Below, one piece after another: positions 8,480 to 17,752 of a DNA stretch of 64,000 bases. Location: assembly GCA_963787535.1 (NCBI GenBank), contig CAWBDB010000006.1, forward strand, positions 54,944 through 118,943, given 5' to 3'. Position 1 is the stretch's first letter. Each line of letters opens with the position of its first letter. Position numbers and translations under genes: made by a program. Source of the stretch: an uncultured Solirubrobacterales bacterium. GTDB lineage: Bacteria > Actinomycetota > Thermoleophilia > Solirubrobacterales > Solirubrobacteraceae. Under the pieces are notes generated by a model that worked only from the letters and a program-made list of their open reading frames with translations, was not told where the DNA came from and made no database searches.

Positions 8480-9382
8480 TCACCCGTCCCGGACGGCGAT
8501 GCGGAACTCTGCCCGGTGCTGCTGCCCAGGCGCGAGCATGCTCAGATCCTCGCCGCTGCGCAGGGCGTTGGTCAGCGCGGTCATCGGTTCAAAGCAGATG
8601 TAGTCATGCTCCGGTGGCGCATAGACCTGTCCGTACGGGAACCCGTCCACGAGCTCCAGCTCGCGCTCGCGCTCGCCCGCGCTGACCGTGAACCGCGCCG
8701 GCTGTCCGCTCAGCACCAGTCCATCGTCCCAGCTGGTCTGCTCGAGCCGGAACGCCGTTGGCCCGAGCGGCTCCCGCGCGCCGGTCGGGATGCTGCGCTC
8801 GTCCAGGACCAGACGCTCGCATCCGGGCAGTGCCACCCGGCACGCTTGCCGCGGGCGGTCGGGCAGGCGCAGGTAAGGGTGGTAGCCGAAGGAGACGGGC
8901 ACGGGCTCACCGGCGCCGGCGATCACGGTGGTGATGATTCGCAGCTCGCCCTCGCCCACCACCGCGTCGATCCGGACCTCGTGGCGAAACGGGAACAGGG
9001 TCAGCAGTTGCTCCTCCTCCCAGCGCAGACGAGCGGAAATTCGCGAACCGGAGCCCGTCGCCTCCCAGCGCATCAGCCCCGGCAACACCCCGTGGATCGG
9101 GAGGCCATTCGGGTCCCGCGGGATCCGAGCCGGGTCGTTCGGCAGCTGGATCCGCCGGCCGGCAACCTCGTAGTCCGGATGCGCCAGCCGGTTCGCCCAC
9201 GGGTACAGCAGCGGAATGCCCATTGTCTTCCCCTGCGCGGCGTAGGCCTCGAGGCCCCGACCCCGATCCAGCAACTCCTCTCCGCGATGCTCCCACGAGC
9301 AGCACACCATGCCCGCCAGCGGCACGAACGAGGCTCGGGTGGCGCCCAGCTCTGACTTGATCTCCACGGTCTGAAAACTCAC
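8480..9382 (-). CDS. Aldose 1-epimerase family protein
   Basis: LLYPWANRL, PIHG, FGYHPY, ICFEPMT. Confidence 0.85.
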   Translation of the reverse strand: MSFQTVEIKSELGATRASFVPLAGMVCCSWEHRGEELLDRGRGLEAYAAQGKTMGIPLLYPWANRLAHPDYEVAGRRIQLPNDPARIPRDPNGLPIHGVLPGLMRWEATGSGSRISARLRWEEEQLLTLFPFRHEVRIDAVVGEGELRIITTVIAGAGEPVPVSFGYHPYLRLPDRPRQACRVALPGCERLVLDERSIPTGAREPLGPTAFRLEQTSWDDGLVLSGQPARFTVSAGERERELELVDGFPYGQVYAPPEHDYICFEPMTALTNALRSGEDLSMLAPGQQHRAEFRIAVRDG

Positions 9383-11520
9383 TGATACTCCTCCAGTCGC
9401 TCGGCCAGCCGGCTGTGGCGGCGGCCGGTGTCAGGTGTCCTCACCGCGCGAGCGATGATTTCCGGAGTGCCGACGAGCACCGTGGCCACGCGCGCCCTGG
9501 TCACGGCGGTGTACAGCATCTCTCGCCGCAGGAAGAACGCGCCGGCCGCGGGGTGGGCGACGATCACCGCCACCGGCAGCTCGATCCCTTGACCGCGATG
9601 CACCGAGCAGGCATAGGCGAGCCGCAGACGGTCGGCCTCCTCCAGCGGGAGACGGAACACCGTCTCCTCGGCGGCCAGCAGCAGTGCGGCCTCGTCGTCC
9701 TCGCCGGAGATCTCATCGAGCAGGCGGAGCAGCGTCCCGTTCATCAGCCCCAGCTCGTGCAGGTTCCGTCCGGTCATCATCACCTTGTCGCCGATGCGCA
9801 GCCGCCCTCCGCGGACCGGCTGACCGGTCGGGTTCAGCGCGTCACGCAGGGCCTCGCCCAGCGCGTCGATTCCAAGCTCGCCGCGGTAGACGGGCGAGAA
9901 CACCTGGATGTCGCTGACCGGATCGAGCTCATAGTGTCCGGGGAGCCGTTCGCTGACCAGCGAGACGATCTCCTCGCGCGCGGCGCGGGGGTCGGCACGA
10001 GCGATCAGGAACAGGTCGCGTCGCATCCCATCAGCCGCCGTGAACCGCGGCAGCTCACCACGACGGATGGCGTGCGCGCCCTGCACGATCATGCTGCCCG
10101 CCGCCTGCCGGAAGATGTGGGTCAGGCGCACCGTCGGCACACGCGCTGACGCCACCAGGTCGGCGAACGGCTTGCCGGCGCCCACCGGGGCCAGCTGGTC
10201 CGCGTCTCCGACCAGGACGACATGCGTCTGGGCCCCGACGGCCCGCAGCAGCATCACCAGCAGCTCCAGGTTGGCCATCGAGGACTCGTCGAGGATCAGC
10301 AACTCGCCCGGGAGCGGATCGTCCTCGTCGTGAGTCGGGCCCTCACCTGGGATCCAGCCCAGTGCCGAGTGGACGGTTCGGGCCTTGACGCCGCTGGCCT
10401 CGCTCATCCTGATCGCCGCTCGTCCGGTCGGGGCCACCAACAGCACGCGCGCGCCCTGCCCGCTGGCCACGGCGGCGATCGTCCGGATCGAGGCGGTCTT
10501 CCCGGTCCCCGGCCCGCCGGTGATCACCGACAACCGGTGGCTGAGCGCGTTACGCAAGCCGGACTGCTGCTCGGCGGTCGGCTGAGGCCCGTCCTGGCTG
10601 ACAGCCTGCTCCACATCGTCCGCATGCAGGCGAGAGCCGGCGGGGCTGTCGAGCAACTCCCGCACGCGCTCGGCCAGCTCGGCCTCGAGCTCGGCCGTGG
10701 CTCGGCGATACACCCAGGGGCCGGCGCAGACGACATCTCCGGACTCCCGCAGGGACGCCAGCAACTGCGCCGGAGGATCGGCGCTCAGCAGCTCGGTCAG
10801 CCCCGTGAGCAGCTCGGCGGCGGGCATGCAGGTGCTGCCGCTGCGCTCACCCTCGGCCAACAAATGCAGCGCTCCGGCCCGCGCACGTTCGTGCTGGTCG
10901 GGGACCCTCCCCGCGGCGTGCGCGATCCGGTCGGCGATGGCAAAGCCCACGCCGAACACGCTGGTCAGCTCGTAGGGACGTTCGGCGACCACGCGGTGGG
11001 CGGTGGGGCCGTACTCCTCATGGACCCGCCGGACCAGGTAGGTGAGTCCGTGCGGGGCCAGCACCAGGTGCAGCTGGCGGGTGACCCGGAGCGCGTTCCA
11101 GCTCCCGCCCGCCTCCTGCGCCCGGGTCCCCCGCAAACCCGCCGAGCGAAACGCGGCACTCGGATCGCGATCGATTGCCTCCAACACGTCGGCTACGCCA
11201 TACCGGGTCACCAGGTCCGCGGCTCGCTGTGGCCCGACGTGCTTGACCCGGCGCAGGTAGGCGATCACCGTATCGGCGTCGGCAGGCGGCAACGGCACCG
11301 CCTCGCTGACCTTGACCTGGGGGCCGTAGCGGCCGTCATCGACCCAGATGCCGATCACCCGCGCCCGCTCTCGCGCCTCCAGGTGGGTCAGCTGGCCGAC
11401 CAGCACCACCTCGTCCCCATCGGCGTCGGCGGCATCGACCACGGCCCAGCCGGTGGCGTCGCTGGCGTAGCGGGTCCGGCGGACCAGCACCTCGGACTCG
11501 AAACGCTCCATCATGCCCAT
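9379..11520 (-). CDS. recD2: RecD2-like SF1B ATP-dependent DNA helicase
   Basis: N-terminal OB-like region, HhH region (KHVGPQRA), Walker A GGPGTGKT, LILDESSM, VGDADQLAPVG, AYACSVHRGQG, YTAVTRAR; start placed at 11520. Confidence 0.9.
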   Translation of the reverse strand: MGMMERFESEVLVRRTRYASDATGWAVVDAADADGDEVVLVGQLTHLEARERARVIGIWVDDGRYGPQVKVSEAVPLPPADADTVIAYLRRVKHVGPQRAADLVTRYGVADVLEAIDRDPSAAFRSAGLRGTRAQEAGGSWNALRVTRQLHLVLAPHGLTYLVRRVHEEYGPTAHRVVAERPYELTSVFGVGFAIADRIAHAAGRVPDQHERARAGALHLLAEGERSGSTCMPAAELLTGLTELLSADPPAQLLASLRESGDVVCAGPWVYRRATAELEAELAERVRELLDSPAGSRLHADDVEQAVSQDGPQPTAEQQSGLRNALSHRLSVITGGPGTGKTASIRTIAAVASGQGARVLLVAPTGRAAIRMSEASGVKARTVHSALGWIPGEGPTHDEDDPLPGELLILDESSMANLELLVMLLRAVGAQTHVVLVGDADQLAPVGAGKPFADLVASARVPTVRLTHIFRQAAGSMIVQGAHAIRRGELPRFTAADGMRRDLFLIARADPRAAREEIVSLVSERLPGHYELDPVSDIQVFSPVYRGELGIDALGEALRDALNPTGQPVRGGRLRIGDKVMMTGRNLHELGLMNGTLLRLLDEISGEDDEAALLLAAEETVFRLPLEEADRLRLAYACSVHRGQGIELPVAVIVAHPAAGAFFLRREMLYTAVTRARVATVLVGTPEIIARAVRTPDTGRRHSRLAERLEEYQ

Positions 11521-11630
11521 GGACCCTAGCCGCCACCGCAGCGTGACCGCCACGGTGGCGCAGAGATGGCACAGCCCGCGGACGGGGGAGCCGGTGCTGT
11601 GTACCGTGGGTTCCCGCGTACGTCGTCCGG

Positions 11631-12142
11631 CTAGTCCTGCTCGGACCGACGCACCGCCGCCTGCATGCCCTCGCTGCCGATCAAGCTGTGAAAGGCGCTG
11701 ACCAACGGCCTGACCGCCCGCACGCCGAGCCGCCCCTGTGCTCCGATCGCCTCCACCCGACCTCGGTGAGCAGCGCACTCCCGCCTTCGATTCCCGGCTC
11801 CACCCAGTGGGCGAACATCACCCGCGCCGTCCCCCGTTGGGCGAAGCGCCGGAACTGCTCCGCATCCTCCATCTGGGGATAGTCACGGCGAAGCGTCCAG
11901 GTCCGGCCCACCAGTCCCGAAGCGAGCATCGTCTGCGCCTGCTCCAATACGGCGAACGGGGGGCTGCGGAACAGCTCGTCGAAGGTGAGCTCGGGCCGGG
12001 TTCCCGGCAGGCGCCAGCTCACCAGCCGACCGAGGAGCGCGGTGTCAGCGAGTCGGACGGCTCGGGCCGAGTGCCACAGACGCTCGGCGGGGGCGCGGCT
12101 GTGGCGATGGTGGGCGACCCGGAGTCCGGGTTCTGCCATCAA
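11631..12142 (-). CDS. Hypothetical protein, probable 1-base deletion at ~11760
   Basis: ORF 11681-12142 is protein-like until LLTEV; a one-base shift continues RVEAIGAQGRLGVRAVRPLVSAFHSLIGSEG..EQD-stop at 11631. Confidence 0.55.
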
Positions 12143-12200: not shown

Positions 12201-12857
12201 GTGGTGATCCGACATGCGCTCGCCCCGGTGCTGGCGCCCGCCGCAGAGTCCCTCTCGCTGCCCCGCGACCTGGACGCGGGCGCCGCCGGACTGGCCATCA
12301 CCTTCGATGACGGGCCCCACCCCGAGGGAACGCCGGCGATGCTCGAGCTGCTCGCGCACGCGCACGCGCGCGCGACGTTCTTCATGATCGGCGAGCAGGT
12401 GGCCCGTCGGCCCGAGCTGGCGGCGGAGGTGGCCGCGGCAGGTCATTGCATCGCGCTGCACGGCCACCGCCATCGCCTCCAGCTGCGGCTCTCGGCCGCG
12501 GCGGTGCAGGAGGACCTGCGTCAGGGTCGGGAGGCGATCGTGCAGGCCACCGGGATCGACCCGGTGCTGCATCGACCGCCATACGGGATCTACAGTGCCG
12601 ATGGCCTGGCCTATGTACGCGCCACCGGGATGAAGCCGCTGCTGTGGTCGCGCTGGGGCAAGGACTGGCGCCGGTTCACAACCCCTCGCACGATCGCCGC
12701 CCTGGCCACCCGCGGGATCGCTGCCGGCGACGTGATCCTCCTGCACGATGCGGACTTTTACAGCTCCCAGGACTCCCACCGGCGCACCGCCCAGGCTCTG
12801 CGGCTGATCCTCGCTGATCTGCAGCGGCGGGAAATCGCTACCGTCCTACCCGTCTGA
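12201..12857 (+). CDS. Polysaccharide deacetylase (NodB/CE4)
   Basis: ITFDDGP, HGHRH, RPPYG, DVILLHD motifs all intact. Confidence 0.9.
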   Translation: MVIRHALAPVLAPAAESLSLPRDLDAGAAGLAITFDDGPHPEGTPAMLELLAHAHARATFFMIGEQVARRPELAAEVAAAGHCIALHGHRHRLQLRLSAAAVQEDLRQGREAIVQATGIDPVLHRPPYGIYSADGLAYVRATGMKPLLWSRWGKDWRRFTTPRTIAALATRGIAAGDVILLHDADFYSSQDSHRRTAQALRLILADLQRREIATVLPV

Positions 12858-12992
12858 GAGGCTTACGTCGTGAGCGTCGTGAGCTGACACCGACTTGACA
12901 CGATCTGCCAAGCTTGTGCGCGGGGGATGCATCTCTGGCCGGTGATGCCCCGCGCTCTTCAGCGCCGCTCGGCTCGCACCGAGAGACCATCA

Positions 12993-14006
12993 ATGACCAT
13001 CGCTTCCGCAACTTCGAACTTCGAGAGGTTCGCGATCGGGTTCGACGATCGCGACCGCGCCCGTCTCCATGAGCTGATCGACGCCGTGCTCGATTCCAAT
13101 CGGTGGTCGGAGGCCGAGATGGTCGCCCGCTTCGAGGCAGCGTGGGCGGCTTGGAACGGGGTCCCGGCCGTCGCGGCCTCCAGCTGGGCCGGCGGCGCGC
13201 TGGCGGCGCTGGATTTCGCGAACGTCGACAGAGCTACGGTCCTGTGCCCGTCCAACACCTTCATGGCCACCCCCCTGGCCGCGATTCGCGCCGGCGCCGA
13301 GGTCCAGTTCGTCGACTGCAACCGCCACGACCTGTGCATGTCGTTCGCCGACTTCGAGGCCAAGGCGCAGGAGCACAAGCCCAAGGCCGCGTTCCTGGTT
13401 CACGTCGGTGGTCACATCGCCTTCGACACCGAGCGCATCGCCGGGTTCTGCGCCGCCAACGGGATCTTCCTCATCGAGGACTGCGCGCACGCTCATGGAG
13501 CCAGCTGGAACGGGCGTAAGCCCGGGAGCTACGGTGACGCCGGGATCTACTCGCTGTACGCGACCAAGACGATCTCCACCGGCGAGGGCGGCGTCCTCGT
13601 CTCCCGGCGCCCTGAGGTGATCGAGCACGCGCGCGGCTTTCGCAACTACGGCAAGCCGAATTTCGACGTGCGCGGCCTCAACTTCCGCATGAGCGAGTTC
13701 ACCGCTGCGCTCGGGCTCGTCCAGATTGAGCGGCTGCCGGAAATCGTTTCCTGGAAGAACTCGGTGGCCCGCGAGCATCTGGATCCGGCGTACCCGAGCC
13801 GGCTCGAGTTACCTGAGGGCATGGTCTCCGGGCTCTACAAGTACGTCGTGTTCGACTGGCTGGAGCGCTCCACCGGCCGCGTCTACGACGAGCCGTGTCA
13901 CCGGATCCTCGGCCACCAGGTGCAGCTGCCCAACGCCGATTGGGTCGCGCACAACCACTCCTGCGTGCCGCTGTACTACCGGCCAGAAGCCACGGTGCCT
14001 GGATGA
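12993..14006 (+). CDS. DegT/DnrJ/EryC1/StrS PLP-dependent sugar aminotransferase
   Basis: PSNTFMAT, IEDCAHAHG, SLYATK (PLP lysine), GEGG, NFRMSE; ATG 12993 preferred as start. Confidence 0.9.
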   Translation: MTIASATSNFERFAIGFDDRDRARLHELIDAVLDSNRWSEAEMVARFEAAWAAWNGVPAVAASSWAGGALAALDFANVDRATVLCPSNTFMATPLAAIRAGAEVQFVDCNRHDLCMSFADFEAKAQEHKPKAAFLVHVGGHIAFDTERIAGFCAANGIFLIEDCAHAHGASWNGRKPGSYGDAGIYSLYATKTISTGEGGVLVSRRPEVIEHARGFRNYGKPNFDVRGLNFRMSEFTAALGLVQIERLPEIVSWKNSVAREHLDPAYPSRLELPEGMVSGLYKYVVFDWLERSTGRVYDEPCHRILGHQVQLPNADWVAHNHSCVPLYYRPEATVPG

Positions 14007-16726
14007 GGGTTCTCGTCACCGGCGGGTCGGGCTTCATCGGCTCGCACGTGATCGACAAGCTTCGTGCCCGCGGCCACGAGCCCGTGATCTACGACCTGCG
14101 GCCTTCGCCGTGGCATGAGCCCGGGTCGGTGGACACCGTGCTGGGCTCGATCACCGATCGCGAGGCCCTGGAGCGCGCGCTGCATTCCTGCGACGCCGTC
14201 GCTCACCTGGCCGCGGTCGCCGACGTCAACGACGTCCACGCCGAGCCCGAGGACGCCGAGCGGGTCAATGCCCGTGGCACCGTCGCGGTGCTGGAGGCGG
14301 CGCGGCGAGCCGGCGTCAAGCGGATCGTCTACGCGAGCACGATCTGGGTCTACTCCGATTGCCAGCCCGAGGCGGTCGACGAGCAGACGCTGCTGCCGCC
14401 GCCCAGCCATCTCTACACCAGCACCAAGCTGGCCGGCGAGCTGTACTGCAAGGCCTACCAGGAGCTCTACGGGATCGACTACACGATCATGCGCTTCGGC
14501 ATCCCGTACGGGCCGCGGGCTCGCGAGGCGGCGGTGATTCCGGCGTTCGTCAACAAGGCGTTCAAGGGCGAGCCGCTGACGCTGGCCGGCGACGGCAGCC
14601 AGTCGCGCCGCTTTGTCTACGTCGAGGACCTCGCCGACGGGGTCGCCCTGGGACTGAGCGAGGTCGCCACCAACCGGATCTACAACCTCGCCAGCGACGA
14701 GAACGTGACCATCAAGCAGATCGCTGAAACGGTCAAGGACCTGATCGGCAACGTCGAGATCGTCCATACCCCGGCTCGTCCCGGAGACTTCGGCGGCAAG
14801 GTCGTCTGCAGCCAGCGCGCGCAGCACGAACTCGGATGGAGCGCCGCCACTCCCTTCTCCGAAGGTGTCCGCCGCTACGTGGAATGGCGGCGCGAGGAGG
14901 CCCGGAAAGCCGACACCGAGCAGGCAGTCGCGGTGATCCCGGCAGGGGAGCCGGACGCCGAGGCGGGTCCGCGCAAGGTGCTGATCATCTCTGCGGACAT
15001 CGGCGAGGGTCACGACCTGCCGGCACGGGCGGTGGCGCGGGAGTTCAAGGACGAGGATCCTGATGCGCTGGTTTCGATCGTCAACGGGCTGCCGGCAATG
15101 GGTCCTGTGCTGACGAGGGTCTTGCGTGAGAACTCGGCCTTCATGTTCCGGTGGCTGCCCTGGCTGTTCGACCTGCAGTACATGCTGTTCATGTACTTCG
15201 CGCCCACTCGATGGCTGGCGCGATGGCTGCTGACCACGCTGGGCCGCCGCGGGCTGATGCGGATGATCCGCGCCCACGACCCCGACGTGATCGTCTCGAC
15301 CTATCCCGGTGTCACCGCCGTCCTCGGCGAGATGCGCCGCTCGGGCAGGCTGAAGGTACCCTGCTACTCCTCGATCACCGATCTCGCTGGGCTCCAGTTC
15401 TGGGCCCATCCCGGCATCGACCTGCATTTCGTCACCCATCCCGAGTCAACCGACGAGGTGGAGCAGATCGCGGGTCCGGGCAGCGTTCGTTGGGCCAAGC
15501 CGCCGACCTCGCCCGCGTTTCTCGCCACCCGGTCGCGCGCGGACGCACGACGGGCGCTTGGTCTGCCTGCCGACGCCAAGGTGATCGGCGTCTCGGGTGG
15601 CGGGTGGGGCGTCGGCGATCTGGTCGGCGCGACCCGGGTCGCGCTCAACTCCGAGCCCGACGCGATCGTCCTCTGCCTGTGCGGACGCAACGATCGCCTG
15701 CGGGCGCGGGTGACCAAGCGCTTCGGCGATCAGCCGCGGCTGCGAGTGATGGGCTTCACCGACCGGATGGGCGACGTGCTCGCCGCAGTCGACGCGCTGG
15801 TTCACTCCAGCGCCGGACTGACCGTGCTCGAAGCGATCATCCGCGGCTGTCCGATTGTCTCCTACGGCTTCGGCGTCGGTCACGTCCGCGCCAGCAACCG
15901 TGCTCTTAAGCGCTTCGGGCTGGCTGAGGTTGCGGGGTCGGAGAGCGATCTGGCCCCCGCGCTGGCCCGGGCGCTCGAGCGCCGTCTTGAGCCCGATCCG
16001 ACTTTCGCCAAGCGGCCCTCGACCGCTTCGCTGATTCTCTCCGAGGACCGCCGCGTTGTACCCATGCCGGCGTGGCGGCTGCGGACTGCCCGCGCTATCA
16101 CTGCGGCCGCAGCGGTGGTCGCCGTCCTCGGATGGACGCTGACCACCGGAGCCTCATACAAGCTGGTCTCGCACTTCGTGCACATGCGAGCGATCACCAC
16201 CGTGGCCACCACTCGGCCCGAGGTGGGCGTGCTCGTCGACGCCCCCGGCCCCGACGTGGTCGACCTCGCCGGCACACTGGCAGCGACCGGCATCCACGCC
16301 TCGTTCGCGGTCGATCATTCGCTCACCCCCGGCGATCTGAGCATCGTCGGCAACGGTGATCAGCCAGTTCCCCGACTACCCGGCGGGGGCTTGGTGCGGT
16401 GGCTGCAGACGCGAGCACAGCTCCACCGGCTGCTGCGGGAGATGGGTGTTGCCCACCACTTCCTCTACACCTCCAGCGGCCCCAGCGTCGGTCAGTGGTG
16501 GCTCGCCCACGGCGCCGGCGGCCGGCTCATCGCCGGGGCGGTCAGGCTCGATGATGCCGGTGACGGTCTCGGCAGCCTGCATTCCGGCGAGGTCGTCGAG
16601 CTCACGGTGTCGAACATGGATGAGGCTCTGCCGCTGCTCCAGAAGCTCCAGGCAACGCTGCAGGTCGATCATCTCGCTGCCGTGCCGGTAGGTCGGCTGA
16701 TGCGCGACGCCGGCGCGTCGGCTTAG
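14003..16726 (+). CDS. Fusion: NAD-dependent sugar epimerase/dehydratase + GT28 (MGDG synthase/UgtP-like) glycosyltransferase + TM + degenerate NodB-like domain
   Basis: ATG 14003 overlaps the DegT stop (ATGA). GGSGFIG and YTSTK; then ISADIGEGH, DVIVSTYP, SGGGWGVG, CGRN, GFTDRM..SSAGLTVLEA; hydrophobic helix; C-terminal domain lacking deacetylase motifs. Confidence 0.85.
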   Translation: MRVLVTGGSGFIGSHVIDKLRARGHEPVIYDLRPSPWHEPGSVDTVLGSITDREALERALHSCDAVAHLAAVADVNDVHAEPEDAERVNARGTVAVLEAARRAGVKRIVYASTIWVYSDCQPEAVDEQTLLPPPSHLYTSTKLAGELYCKAYQELYGIDYTIMRFGIPYGPRAREAAVIPAFVNKAFKGEPLTLAGDGSQSRRFVYVEDLADGVALGLSEVATNRIYNLASDENVTIKQIAETVKDLIGNVEIVHTPARPGDFGGKVVCSQRAQHELGWSAATPFSEGVRRYVEWRREEARKADTEQAVAVIPAGEPDAEAGPRKVLIISADIGEGHDLPARAVAREFKDEDPDALVSIVNGLPAMGPVLTRVLRENSAFMFRWLPWLFDLQYMLFMYFAPTRWLARWLLTTLGRRGLMRMIRAHDPDVIVSTYPGVTAVLGEMRRSGRLKVPCYSSITDLAGLQFWAHPGIDLHFVTHPESTDEVEQIAGPGSVRWAKPPTSPAFLATRSRADARRALGLPADAKVIGVSGGGWGVGDLVGATRVALNSEPDAIVLCLCGRNDRLRARVTKRFGDQPRLRVMGFTDRMGDVLAAVDALVHSSAGLTVLEAIIRGCPIVSYGFGVGHVRASNRALKRFGLAEVAGSESDLAPALARALERRLEPDPTFAKRPSTASLILSEDRRVVPMPAWRLRTARAITAAAAVVAVLGWTLTTGASYKLVSHFVHMRAITTVATTRPEVGVLVDAPGPDVVDLAGTLAATGIHASFAVDHSLTPGDLSIVGNGDQPVPRLPGGGLVRWLQTRAQLHRLLREMGVAHHFLYTSSGPSVGQWWLAHGAGGRLIAGAVRLDDAGDGLGSLHSGEVVELTVSNMDEALPLLQKLQATLQVDHLAAVPVGRLMRDAGASA

Positions 16727-16786: not shown

Positions 16787-17752
16787 CTACCAGTACACGC
16801 CGCGCGTGGCCCGCGCGAACGCCAGCTGCTCAGCCGTCGGCTCCTCGATCGCCCGTTGCTTGTCTCCGCCCTCGGGAAACAGCTTGTAGGCGCGGTGGAC
16901 GACCAGATCCTGAGCGCCCGGGGCGATCGCATAGGTCAGCTGACCGATGGTCCCGAGCGTGGTGGCGACGCGCTTGGGCCGCTTGCGGATCGCCTCGCAG
17001 AGCATCTCCCCGGCCTCCTCGGGGCTGAGCGTGGGGAAGCGGTCGTAGAGCTTGGTTGGAGCGATCATCGGCGTGCGCACCAGCGGCATGTAGACGGTGG
17101 TGAAGTGGACGCCGTCGCCGATCACCTCCGGTCCGATCGACCGGGCGAAGGCATCCAGTGCCGCTTTTGAGGCCAGGTAGGCGCTGAACCGCGGGGTGTT
17201 GGTCTGCAGGCCGATGGTCGAGACGTTGATGATGTGGCCCGATCCCTCCTCCCGCATCACCGGGAGCAGCTTCAGGATCAACTTGACGGGCGCGAAGTAA
17301 TTGAGCTGCATCGTCCGCTCGTAGTCGTGAAAGCGCTCATAGGAGCGATGGACCGAGCGGCGGATCGAACGGCCGGCGTTGTTGACCAGGACGTCGACGA
17401 GGCCGTGCTGGTCCAGCACCTCCTCGGCGAGGCGATCGACGTCATCGAGATCGGAGAGGTCGCAGGGATGGACGTGGCCCTGGCCGCCGAGGTCTCGGAC
17501 CTCCCGCGCGACCTCCTCGAGCTTCTCCGGCGTGCGCGCCACCAGCAGCACCGTCCCTCCCGCCGCGCCGAGCTGCAGCGCAGTGGCCCGACCGATTCCC
17601 TGAGAGGCGCCGGTGATGAGGATGTTGCGATCTCTGACCACGCCGGAGAGTGACTGGGCCAGTACCCCGCCGGCCGCGGGAATGCGCTGTCCGAGGGTCA
17701 GCAGCGTCTGAACGCCCCTGACGGCGAGGTCCCCGAGATTTGGCGGCTCCAT
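16787..17752 (-). CDS. SDR oxidoreductase similar to fatty acyl-CoA reductase C-terminal domain
   Basis: ITGASQGIG, VLVNNAGRSIRRS, YLASK, VYMPLVRTPMIAPT. Confidence 0.85.
   Translation of the reverse strand: MEPPNLGDLAVRGVQTLLTLGQRIPAAGGVLAQSLSGVVRDRNILITGASQGIGRATALQLGAAGGTVLLVARTPEKLEEVAREVRDLGGQGHVHPCDLSDLDDVDRLAEEVLDQHGLVDVLVNNAGRSIRRSVHRSYERFHDYERTMQLNYFAPVKLILKLLPVMREEGSGHIINVSTIGLQTNTPRFSAYLASKAALDAFARSIGPEVIGDGVHFTTVYMPLVRTPMIAPTKLYDRFPTLSPEEAGEMLCEAIRKRPKRVATTLGTIGQLTYAIAPGAQDLVVHRAYKLFPEGGDKQRAIEEPTAEQLAFARATRGVYW

Follow-up and report, generated by a model that had tools for sequence, protein, structure and literature searches.

The window analysed here is a 64,000-nucleotide stretch of an uncultured Solirubrobacteraceae (Thermoleophilia) genome (assembly GCA_963787535.1, contig CAWBDB010000006.1, forward strand), with a G+C content of ~69%. 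It contains an operon of three genes, which encode a stand-alone deacetylase of carbohydrate esterase family 4 (CE4), a DegT aminotransferase, and a fusion protein in which a short-chain dehydrogenase/reductase (SDR) domain, a glycosyltransferase (GT) domain of family 28 (GT28), a transmembrane (TM) helix and a CE4-like domain follow one another. Our reading, which we hold at about even confidence, is that the product of the operon is a cationic amino-sugar glycerolipid, formed at the cytoplasmic membrane, and that the sugar is aminated as a uridine diphosphate (UDP) sugar before it is transferred. The features of the operon are as follows (window positions; aa, amino acids; ORF, open reading frame; MGDG, monogalactosyldiacylglycerol).

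12201..12857, plus strand: CE4 deacetylase gene, 218 aa, GTG start
12927..14006, plus strand: DegT aminotransferase gene, 359-aa ORF
14003..16726, plus strand: SDR::GT28::TM::CE4-fold fusion gene, single ORF of 907 aa, ATG start
14003..14932, plus strand: fusion domain 1, GalE-like extended SDR, aa 1 to ~310, signature A-S-T-I-W-V-Y
14972..16042, plus strand: fusion domain 2, GT28 (GT-B fold), MGDG-synthase/UgtP-like putative lipid glycosyltransferase, aa ~324–680
16088..16147, plus strand: single TM helix of the fusion, aa ~696–715
16208..16726, plus strand: fusion domain 3, predicted extracytoplasmic CE4/NodB-fold pseudo-deacetylase, with the stop codon

A first-pass annotation, made from the letters of the DNA, had described three co-oriented genes, the last of them a ~907-aa ORF composed of an SDR, a GT28 domain, a TM helix and a NodB-like domain. 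This description holds: all three genes lie on the plus strand, the ATGA overlap between DegT and the fusion gene is read directly at 14003–14006, and every part of the fusion protein was confirmed by Pfam, structure matches and fold comparison. The SDR motifs it had quoted, GGSGFIG and YTSTK, were both found. The linker between the SDR and GT28 domains, which was said to be unbroken, has no stop or frameshift. In a lineage comparison that covered the best 80 species-level Solirubrobacteraceae genome loci, all from metagenome-assembled genomes (MAGs), 72 of the 73 species genomes, each assembled independently, had an uninterrupted fusion ORF, and the overlap with DegT was ATGA or GTGA in 59 of 69. 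Moreover, more than 100 database proteins of 899–916 aa share at least 78% identity with the 907-aa fusion and have the identical set of Pfam domains. The possibility that the fusion junction is an assembly artefact was therefore rejected. In one genome of the same genus (G004, C15:586081-588803), the fusion orthologue is distributed over three frames, corresponding to query residues 1–175, 165–400 and 398–906; this copy is either a decaying gene or pseudogene, or a sequencing or assembly error.

The SDR domain matches the Pfam Epimerase family at aa 3–230 (E = 1e-55). Over its full length it matches the GalE structures of T. maritima (4zrm) and T. thermophilus (2p5u) and a UDP-N-acetylglucosamine (UDP-GlcNAc) 4-epimerase (6wj9), with E values of 4e-43 to 4e-37, and the GalE structures cover residues 1–298 of the fusion. 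Thirteen SDR orthologues have the invariant motifs ST[IV]W, YT..K, Q.R.F.YVEDLA and R..D; the window SDR has AST, Q-S-R-R-F-V-Y-V and A-R-P-G-D in addition to the two motifs named above. Both UDP-phosphate arginine positions (in Q.R.F.YV and R..D) are retained in 13/13 orthologues, and because of these arginines and the end-to-end alignment with GalE, the substrate is probably a nucleotide sugar. The domain scored below the cut-offs of both the GalE equivalog TIGR01179 (120.4 bits vs 262.3) and the dehydratase model TIGR01181 (140.7 bits vs 365). The residues that follow the catalytic Ser/Thr are D-E in dehydratases, S-E in decarboxylases and two small residues in epimerases, whereas they are an invariant Ile/Val-Trp in the window SDR and its orthologues. 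The Trp, itself invariant across the orthologues, occupies the position of the decarboxylase Glu (S/T-S-E). With this pair, the SDR is not a 4,6-dehydratase, and it is not a decarboxylase of the UXS/ArnA type either. The dehydratase role proposed by the first-pass annotation thus failed, and the classical route of a 4,6-dehydratase followed by DegT was ruled out by S-T-I-W in place of T-D-E/T-S-E.

The active-site segment of the SDR, taken alone, is most similar to GalE-like L-threonine 3-dehydrogenases, although the match is weak. L-Threonine 3-dehydrogenases of this type release a ketone. Together with the transaminase partnership, this weak likeness suggests that the SDR is a UDP-sugar dehydrogenase handing a keto-sugar to DegT. 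In the same genus we also found ~700-aa ORFs (G017:C60:35040-36881, G002:C333:9318-11336 and G008:C2:151006-151992) with an SDR 38–39% identical to the SDR of the fusion; they form a separate paralogous fusion family, apparently with a second SDR in tandem.

The DegT gene belongs to Pfam PF01041 (DegT_DnrJ_EryC1; 191 bits, E = 4e-56), and translation may in fact begin at the ATG at 12993. The Schiff-base lysine for pyridoxal phosphate (PLP) lies within YATKTISTGEGG and is not replaced by His as in the dehydratase members; of 15 DegT::SDR fusions scanned, 14 have this lysine as well. The best NCBIfam models were PseC, LegC and DesI, all far under their cut-offs. The best matches in the PDB were inosose aminotransferases of the BtrR type (scyllo-inosose) and DesI, and Kdo8N was also among the best.

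The GT28 domain matches MGDG_synth (PF06925) at aa 338–487 (E = 4.4e-11), and the C-terminal half of the GT-B fold was located at aa 550–657. The diglucosyl-diacylglycerol synthase model NF010135 spans aa 324–654 and scores 107 bits, its cut-off being 500. Residues 322–648 match the structures of plant MGD1 (4wyi, 1.7e-19) and bacterial UgtP (9wde, 6e-19). The motifs G-x-G-H, SGGGWG and T-x-L-E-A are invariant among 17 GT28 orthologues, and the domain looks active, as it retains its nucleotide-binding motifs and the base in G-x-G-H. Its N-terminal half matches the lipid-acceptor domain of MGDG_synth and not that of MurG.

Behind the GT28 domain, the TM helix has the sequence RRVVPMPAWRLRTAR-AITAAAAVVAVLGWTL and is preceded by a conserved W and R. 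The Arg-rich stretch before the helix indicates an N-in/C-out topology, so that the SDR and GT domains are predicted to be inside the cell and the CE4-like domain outside. No Pfam match was obtained for the tail (residues ~690–907, including the last domain of ~170 aa). In a model of the last 267 aa, predicted by AlphaFold with an alignment of 19 homologues (pLDDT 74.8), a long helix, with the TM segment at residues 50–74 of the piece, precedes an alpha/beta domain. A Foldseek comparison of this domain with the PDB gave CE4/NodB proteins for all of the top 21 matches (E = 8e-6 to 2e-3, probability 1.00, TM-score (target) 0.49–0.64). The nearest folds were peptidoglycan and chitin deacetylases, and the CE4 pseudoenzyme BA3943 was among the 21. 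An hhalign comparison of the tail with the operon's own CE4 family was colinear (VLVDAP on TFDDGP, ASF on ATFF) but weak (P = 0.037). Sequence evidence for a NodB-like tail is accordingly weak, and it is the fold comparison that settles the question. The 19 tail homologues show no conserved Asp-His-His metal triad, no conserved Asp pair and no H-x4-H; the positions invariant among them are confined to W, F, A, G and L. According to the model, then, the tail is a NodB-fold domain without catalytic metal residues, that is, a pseudo-deacetylase. It also diverges faster than the rest, being 55–62% identical within the genus while the whole protein is ~78% identical.

The stand-alone CE4 protein is a member of PF01522 (Polysacc_deac_1; 101.9 bits, E of the 1e-29 class). 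The NodB motifs TFDDGP, H-x4-H, RPPYG, DW and LLHD are all invariant among 18 CE4 orthologues, and with these five motifs intact the protein looks like an active N-deacetylase. Neither a signal peptide nor a TM helix was found in its 218 aa, and it is predicted to be cytoplasmic. The NodB and PdaB models matched it below their equivalog cut-offs.

GT28 orthologues were present in 27 of 201 Thermoleophilia genomes. The loci compared numbered 34, of which 18 (with flanks) were from Thermoleophilia and 16 from other families of Actinomycetota. GT28 and CE4 were neighbours at 28 of the 34 (17/18 and 11/16, respectively), and the 11 loci from other families had neither DegT nor SDR. In nine of these 11, GT28 bears the TM helix and a tail of ~190 aa, and the GT28::TM::ectodomain architecture occupies dozens of clusters at 50% identity. 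DegT and SDR adjoined each other and the core in all 12 Thermoleophilia loci that have them, in several orders and strands, fused or unfused. In contrast, five genomes that carry the GT28 and CE4 core and are 96–99% complete lack a DegT orthologue genome-wide. The only further recurrent neighbour, as seen by neighbour clustering, was a ~300-aa membrane protein like those of the DMT/EamA family (21/34 loci). Because the core occurs at many loci without DegT and SDR, the ancient unit is GT28 with its TM helix and tail plus CE4, often with DMT, and DegT and SDR were added later. GT28 and CE4 are thus the ancient core across Actinomycetota, and DegT and SDR are an optional addition. This speaks against the earlier suggestion that CE4 "tunes" acetylation: CE4 is part of the obligatory core and probably does more than that. 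The proposal that the three genes are one functional unit is supported, as the four activities cluster together across Thermoleophilia whether fused or not, and as independent fusions (DegT::SDR, DegT::SDR::GT28 and PAP2::GT28) tie them to one another. In one Thermoleophilia family (L028:6792-8166, also L029 and L030), genes for a fatty-acid hydroxylase and a Sap/SfLAP protein, which resembles sulfolipid-addressing proteins, lie between the DegT–SDR pair and GT28.

Other fusions were sought among 1.8 billion representative proteins. At least 15 DegT::SDR fusions were found, in one of which the DegT part is 56% identical to the window DegT, together with DegT::SDR::GT28 fusions of 1107 aa and 839 aa and an SDR::4TM::CE4-like fusion. 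A 639-aa protein (P0227) joins a PAP2 lipid-phosphate phosphatase to a GT28 that is 42% identical to the window GT28; a possible function of the PAP2 part is to supply the acceptor. The signature ST[IVT]W[VAI]Y was present in every SDR tied to this DegT, and in every case examined the SDR subgroup was accompanied by DegT. In high-GC genomes, the DegT::SDR fusions lie among genes for CE4, an EamA-like protein, GT28, a PlsC acyltransferase, and SfLAP or MprF-type TM proteins. In distant genomes of 52% and 40% GC, they are directly followed by a PIG-L deacetylase and accompanied by GT2 or GT4. As SDR, transaminase, N-deacetylase and glycosyltransferase recur together with non-homologous deacetylases and glycosyltransferases, the substrate is likely to be an N-acetylated sugar. 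That the pathway leads to a lipid is suggested by the PAP2::GT28 fusion and by the PlsC, SfLAP and LPG_synthase_TM genes beside the cluster in relatives.

From these observations we propose the following pathway. The SDR domain would bind a UDP-N-acetylhexosamine (UDP-HexNAc), most simply UDP-GlcNAc, and oxidise a ring hydroxyl, most likely at C4, with neither dehydration nor decarboxylation; the keto-sugar would be handed over rather than reduced again. DegT, which is translationally coupled to the fusion, would transaminate it to a UDP-amino-HexNAc, and the GT28 domain fused behind the SDR would transfer the sugar to diacylglycerol (DAG) or a similar neutral glycerolipid in the inner leaflet. 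The cytoplasmic CE4 would then strip the 2-N-acetyl group, leaving a head group with one amine certainly and two probably. The lipid would be flipped by a transporter encoded outside the operon; in relatives, a DMT/EamA-like gene stands beside the core. Finally, the outward-facing inactive CE4-fold domain may bind the sugar head group or the wall, without cleaving either. The suggestion of the first-pass annotation that the unit makes a cationic amino-glycolipid is therefore kept in part: a lipid-linked amino sugar remains the interpretation that fits best, and the dehydratase role and the mere tuning of acetylation are not retained.

A more specific form of this pathway is offered tentatively. 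The SDR would be a GalE-derived UDP-HexNAc 4-dehydrogenase that, with DegT, forms UDP-4-amino-4-deoxy-HexNAc and hence a 2,4-diamino-sugar glycerolipid, and the dead ectodomain would be the receptor of the head group at the outer face. If this is true, the doubly cationic 2,4-diamino-sugar glycerolipid would be a class of membrane lipid not yet described.

Several points weigh against amination before transfer to a glycerolipid. The operon in the window has no dedicated flippase gene, and the best DMT homologue in the genome, on another contig, is 32% identical. Six LPG_synthase_TM genes (PF03706, MprF-flippase-like) do exist elsewhere in this genome (G000, contigs C2, C4, C5 and C6); none is linked to the operon, and they are candidate flippases for the lipid. 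We know of no sugar SDR that oxidises a UDP-HexNAc at C4 without dehydration and then lets the keto-sugar go. The best solved relatives of DegT use non-nucleotide ketones such as inososes and Kdo, and no named equivalog model comes near its curated cut-off with either GT28 or CE4. DAG as the acceptor is proposed from family membership. Of nine unfused SDR relatives, four have a TM anchor of their own with 3–4 helices, which would fit a lipid-bound sugar; the other five are soluble. Neither this SDR subgroup nor this DegT subgroup includes a characterised member.

Some of these points suit an alternative in which the sugar is tailored after transfer. GT28 would put GlcNAc on DAG, CE4 would deacetylate it, the tethered SDR would oxidise the lipid-bound glucosamine and DegT would aminate it to a diamino sugar. 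DegT and SDR would then be optional on a core that functions without them, as observed, and the SDR would be held at the membrane through GT28 or its own anchor. The non-nucleotide substrates of the best DegT matches (BtrR, scyllo-inosose; Kdo8N) are also in line with this order of events. In the neamine and kanamycin pathways, a glycosyltransferase and a deacetylase are followed by a dehydrogenase and then an aminotransferase that act on the transferred sugar. However, the SDR has a complete C-terminal substrate domain of the GalE type with both UDP-phosphate arginines invariant, and the five soluble SDRs lack the membrane tether. In addition, the same DegT::SDR module occurs in GT2 and in GT4 clusters, whose acceptors differ widely, and action on a common nucleotide sugar is the easier explanation for this. 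We regard tailoring after transfer as doubtful.

A pentose route like that of the Arn pathway, in which the SDR would be a divergent 4-oxidase/decarboxylase of UDP-glucuronate or UDP-GlcNAcA, DegT would give a UDP-4-amino-4-deoxy-pentose, GT28 would transfer it and CE4 would remove an N-acyl group, is unlikely. The set of SDR, DegT, lipid glycosyltransferase, CE4 and DMT-type protein does mirror ArnA-DH, ArnB, ArnC, ArnD and ArnE/F, and UXS structures score nearly as high as GalE against the SDR. There is also a cluster in a MAG of 52% GC (GCA_964344145.1, L140:2356-11664) in which a DegT::SDR fusion with ST[IVT]W[VAI]Y adjoins two UDP-sugar 6-dehydrogenases, an epimerase, a PIG-L deacetylase, a formyltransferase, a small GT2, NeuB, a CMP-transferase and an ABC exporter; in appearance this is a glycan locus of an Arn-like or nonulosonic-acid-like type in which the DegT::SDR module has been put to use again. 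Yet in the window SDR, Trp replaces the Glu of the S-E/T-S-E decarboxylase motif, and a formyltransferase and a UDP-sugar dehydrogenase were absent from the window operon and from the gene families recurrent in the 34 loci. The ArnB model NF008658, with a cut-off of 631 bits, gave DegT 71.9 bits. The matches of CE4, which shares its Pfam family with ArnD, included no ArnD-specific NCBIfam model. Moreover, CE4 accompanies GT28 even where DegT and SDR are missing.

It is likewise improbable that the acceptor is something other than a glycerolipid, the unit starting or decorating a wall polymer, a lipoglycan anchor or a small molecule, with the outward CE4-like domain bound to peptidoglycan. UgtP-type products anchor lipoteichoic acid in Firmicutes, and the nearest folds of the ectodomain are the peptidoglycan and chitin deacetylases. 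This must be set against the match of the GT28 N-terminal half to MGDG_synth instead of MurG, the lipid-related character of the genes linked in relatives (PAP2, PlsC, SfLAP and the MprF-type TM domain), and the 34 loci, in which no polymerase, ligase or exporter gene was linked.

Ordinary galactolipid synthesis, with the SDR a plain UDP-glucose 4-epimerase that feeds an MGDG synthase and with CE4 and DegT as unrelated neighbours, would agree with GalE enzymes being the best full-length SDR matches and with an independent SDR::GT28 protein (P0233, 907 aa, 35% identical to the window fusion) that has the canonical GalE motif ASSSAVY, lacks the Trp signature and may be a true epimerase–galactolipid synthase fusion, but it is highly improbable for the window in view of the four-way co-location that persists across families in differing gene orders, the DegT::SDR and DegT::SDR::GT28 fusions, the constant company of DegT and the ST[IVT]W[VAI]Y subgroup, and the score below the GalE equivalog cut-off.

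Two genes on the opposite strand flank the operon:

9379-11778, minus strand: RecD2 helicase gene, upstream flank
16787-17752, minus strand: adh_short SDR gene, downstream flank

The order RecD2, CE4, DegT, fusion and adh_short recurs across the 80 species-level genomes of the lineage. The synteny of RecD2 and adh_short with the operon is confined to the genus, and both were rejected as operon members. A 153-aa ORF on the minus strand (11681-12142), between the starts of RecD2 and CE4, has a coding-like G+C content at third codon positions and no Pfam match; it could be a small unknown gene or no real gene at all.

In bacteria, cationic lipids determine the charge of the cell surface as well as resistance to cationic peptides and to lipopeptide antibiotics such as daptomycin. 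To our knowledge, HexSDF and GpgSDF are the only amino-sugar lipid systems that have been worked out. The present locus shows that many soil Actinomycetota have a related core, made up of an active-looking CE4, a GT28 whose outward-facing CE4-like tail is inactive and, in many cases, a DMT protein, and that one abundant uncultured lineage added a putative oxidase/transaminase pair to it. Since the pair with ST[IVT]W[VAI]Y recurs in unrelated glycan clusters, its chemistry, once solved, would allow many genomes to be annotated and could bring to light a new nucleotide amino sugar. For expression, ready-made constructs exist in the natural fusions. The literature searched gave nothing relevant on hexosaminyl-diacylglycerol or Solirubrobacter amino-glycolipids, and it contained no description of an SDR::GT28 fusion, in agreement with the first-pass annotation, which knew of no described epimerase–GT28 fusion; in genomes such fusions are common and generically annotated. 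The term "GlcN-DAG" in PMC11630815 appears to mean Glc(n)-DAG.

Among known systems, the core most resembles HexSDF of Clostridioides difficile, which synthesises aminohexosyl-hexosyl-diradylglycerol and whose HexS and HexD carry the annotations MGDG synthase and polysaccharide deacetylase, respectively; lipidomics of HexS and HexD showed first an N-acetyl intermediate and next the aminohexosyl product (PMC10128005). There, the glycosyltransferase attaches an N-acetylhexosamine to a glycerolipid and the deacetylase bares its amine, so that a cationic or zwitterionic glycolipid results; the like is proposed for the window core. In both systems a glycosyltransferase of the MGDG-synthase family and a CE4 deacetylase are encoded together, a likeness at the level of enzyme families. 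Unlike HexSDF, the window operon has no MprF-like (LPG_synthase_TM) flippase, the relatives having a DMT/EamA-like gene, and no two-component regulator is linked to it. Its glycosyltransferase bears a TM helix and an apparently inactive CE4-fold ectodomain, its CE4 is predicted to be cytoplasmic, and it adds DegT and a GalE-like SDR that is fused to the glycosyltransferase. In GpgSDF of Pseudomonas aeruginosa, glucosaminyl-phosphatidylglycerol is made by a synthase, a deacetylase and a flippase, with the glycosyltransferase and deacetylase in the cytoplasm (PMC12713373). The same division of labour is proposed here, with the flippase separate from cytoplasmic transfer and deacetylation. However, the GpgSDF families are GT4, a COG3233 deacetylase and a UPF0104 flippase, its acceptor is phosphatidylglycerol, and it has no oxidase/transaminase pair.

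The Arn pathway for 4-amino-4-deoxy-L-arabinose (Ara4N; ArnA, B, C, D, E/F and T) is, as far as the sequences tell, the closest in overall logic: an extended SDR releases a 4-keto UDP-sugar, a DegT transaminase follows, the sugar is transferred to a membrane lipid, a CE4-family deacylase acts on the lipid-linked sugar, and small DMT-type membrane proteins serve in flipping. Yet each testable feature specific to Arn appears to fail. The operon has no decarboxylase Glu in its SDR and neither a formyltransferase nor a GT2 gene, its glycosyltransferase is GT28 whereas ArnC is GT2, there is no ArnT-like final transferase, and the acceptor is probably diacylglycerol in contrast to undecaprenyl phosphate. 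In comparison with GalE, the whole SDR domain aligns, and GxxGxxG, the S/T, YxxxK and the UDP-binding arginines are kept, but the invariant Ile-Trp stands where GalE has two small residues beside the catalytic Ser/Thr, a transaminase is the obligate partner of the window SDR, as a separate gene or by fusion, and its score lies below the GalE equivalog cut-off. BA3943 of Bacillus anthracis (PDB 6hm9) likewise has a NodB fold that has lost catalytic and metal residues and lies outside the membrane, whereas the window domain is the C-terminal tail of a glycosyltransferase predicted to be cytoplasmic, behind one TM helix. As the window core belongs with HexS and HexD, the term "undescribed", which had been applied to the whole pathway, is only partly right; the SDR and DegT addition and the fusion are the uncharacterised part. 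What is new is the SDR and DegT module with its fusion to the glycosyltransferase, the putatively dead CE4 ectodomain on that enzyme, the DMT protein of the relatives in contrast to an MprF-type flippase, and the predicted cytoplasmic CE4.

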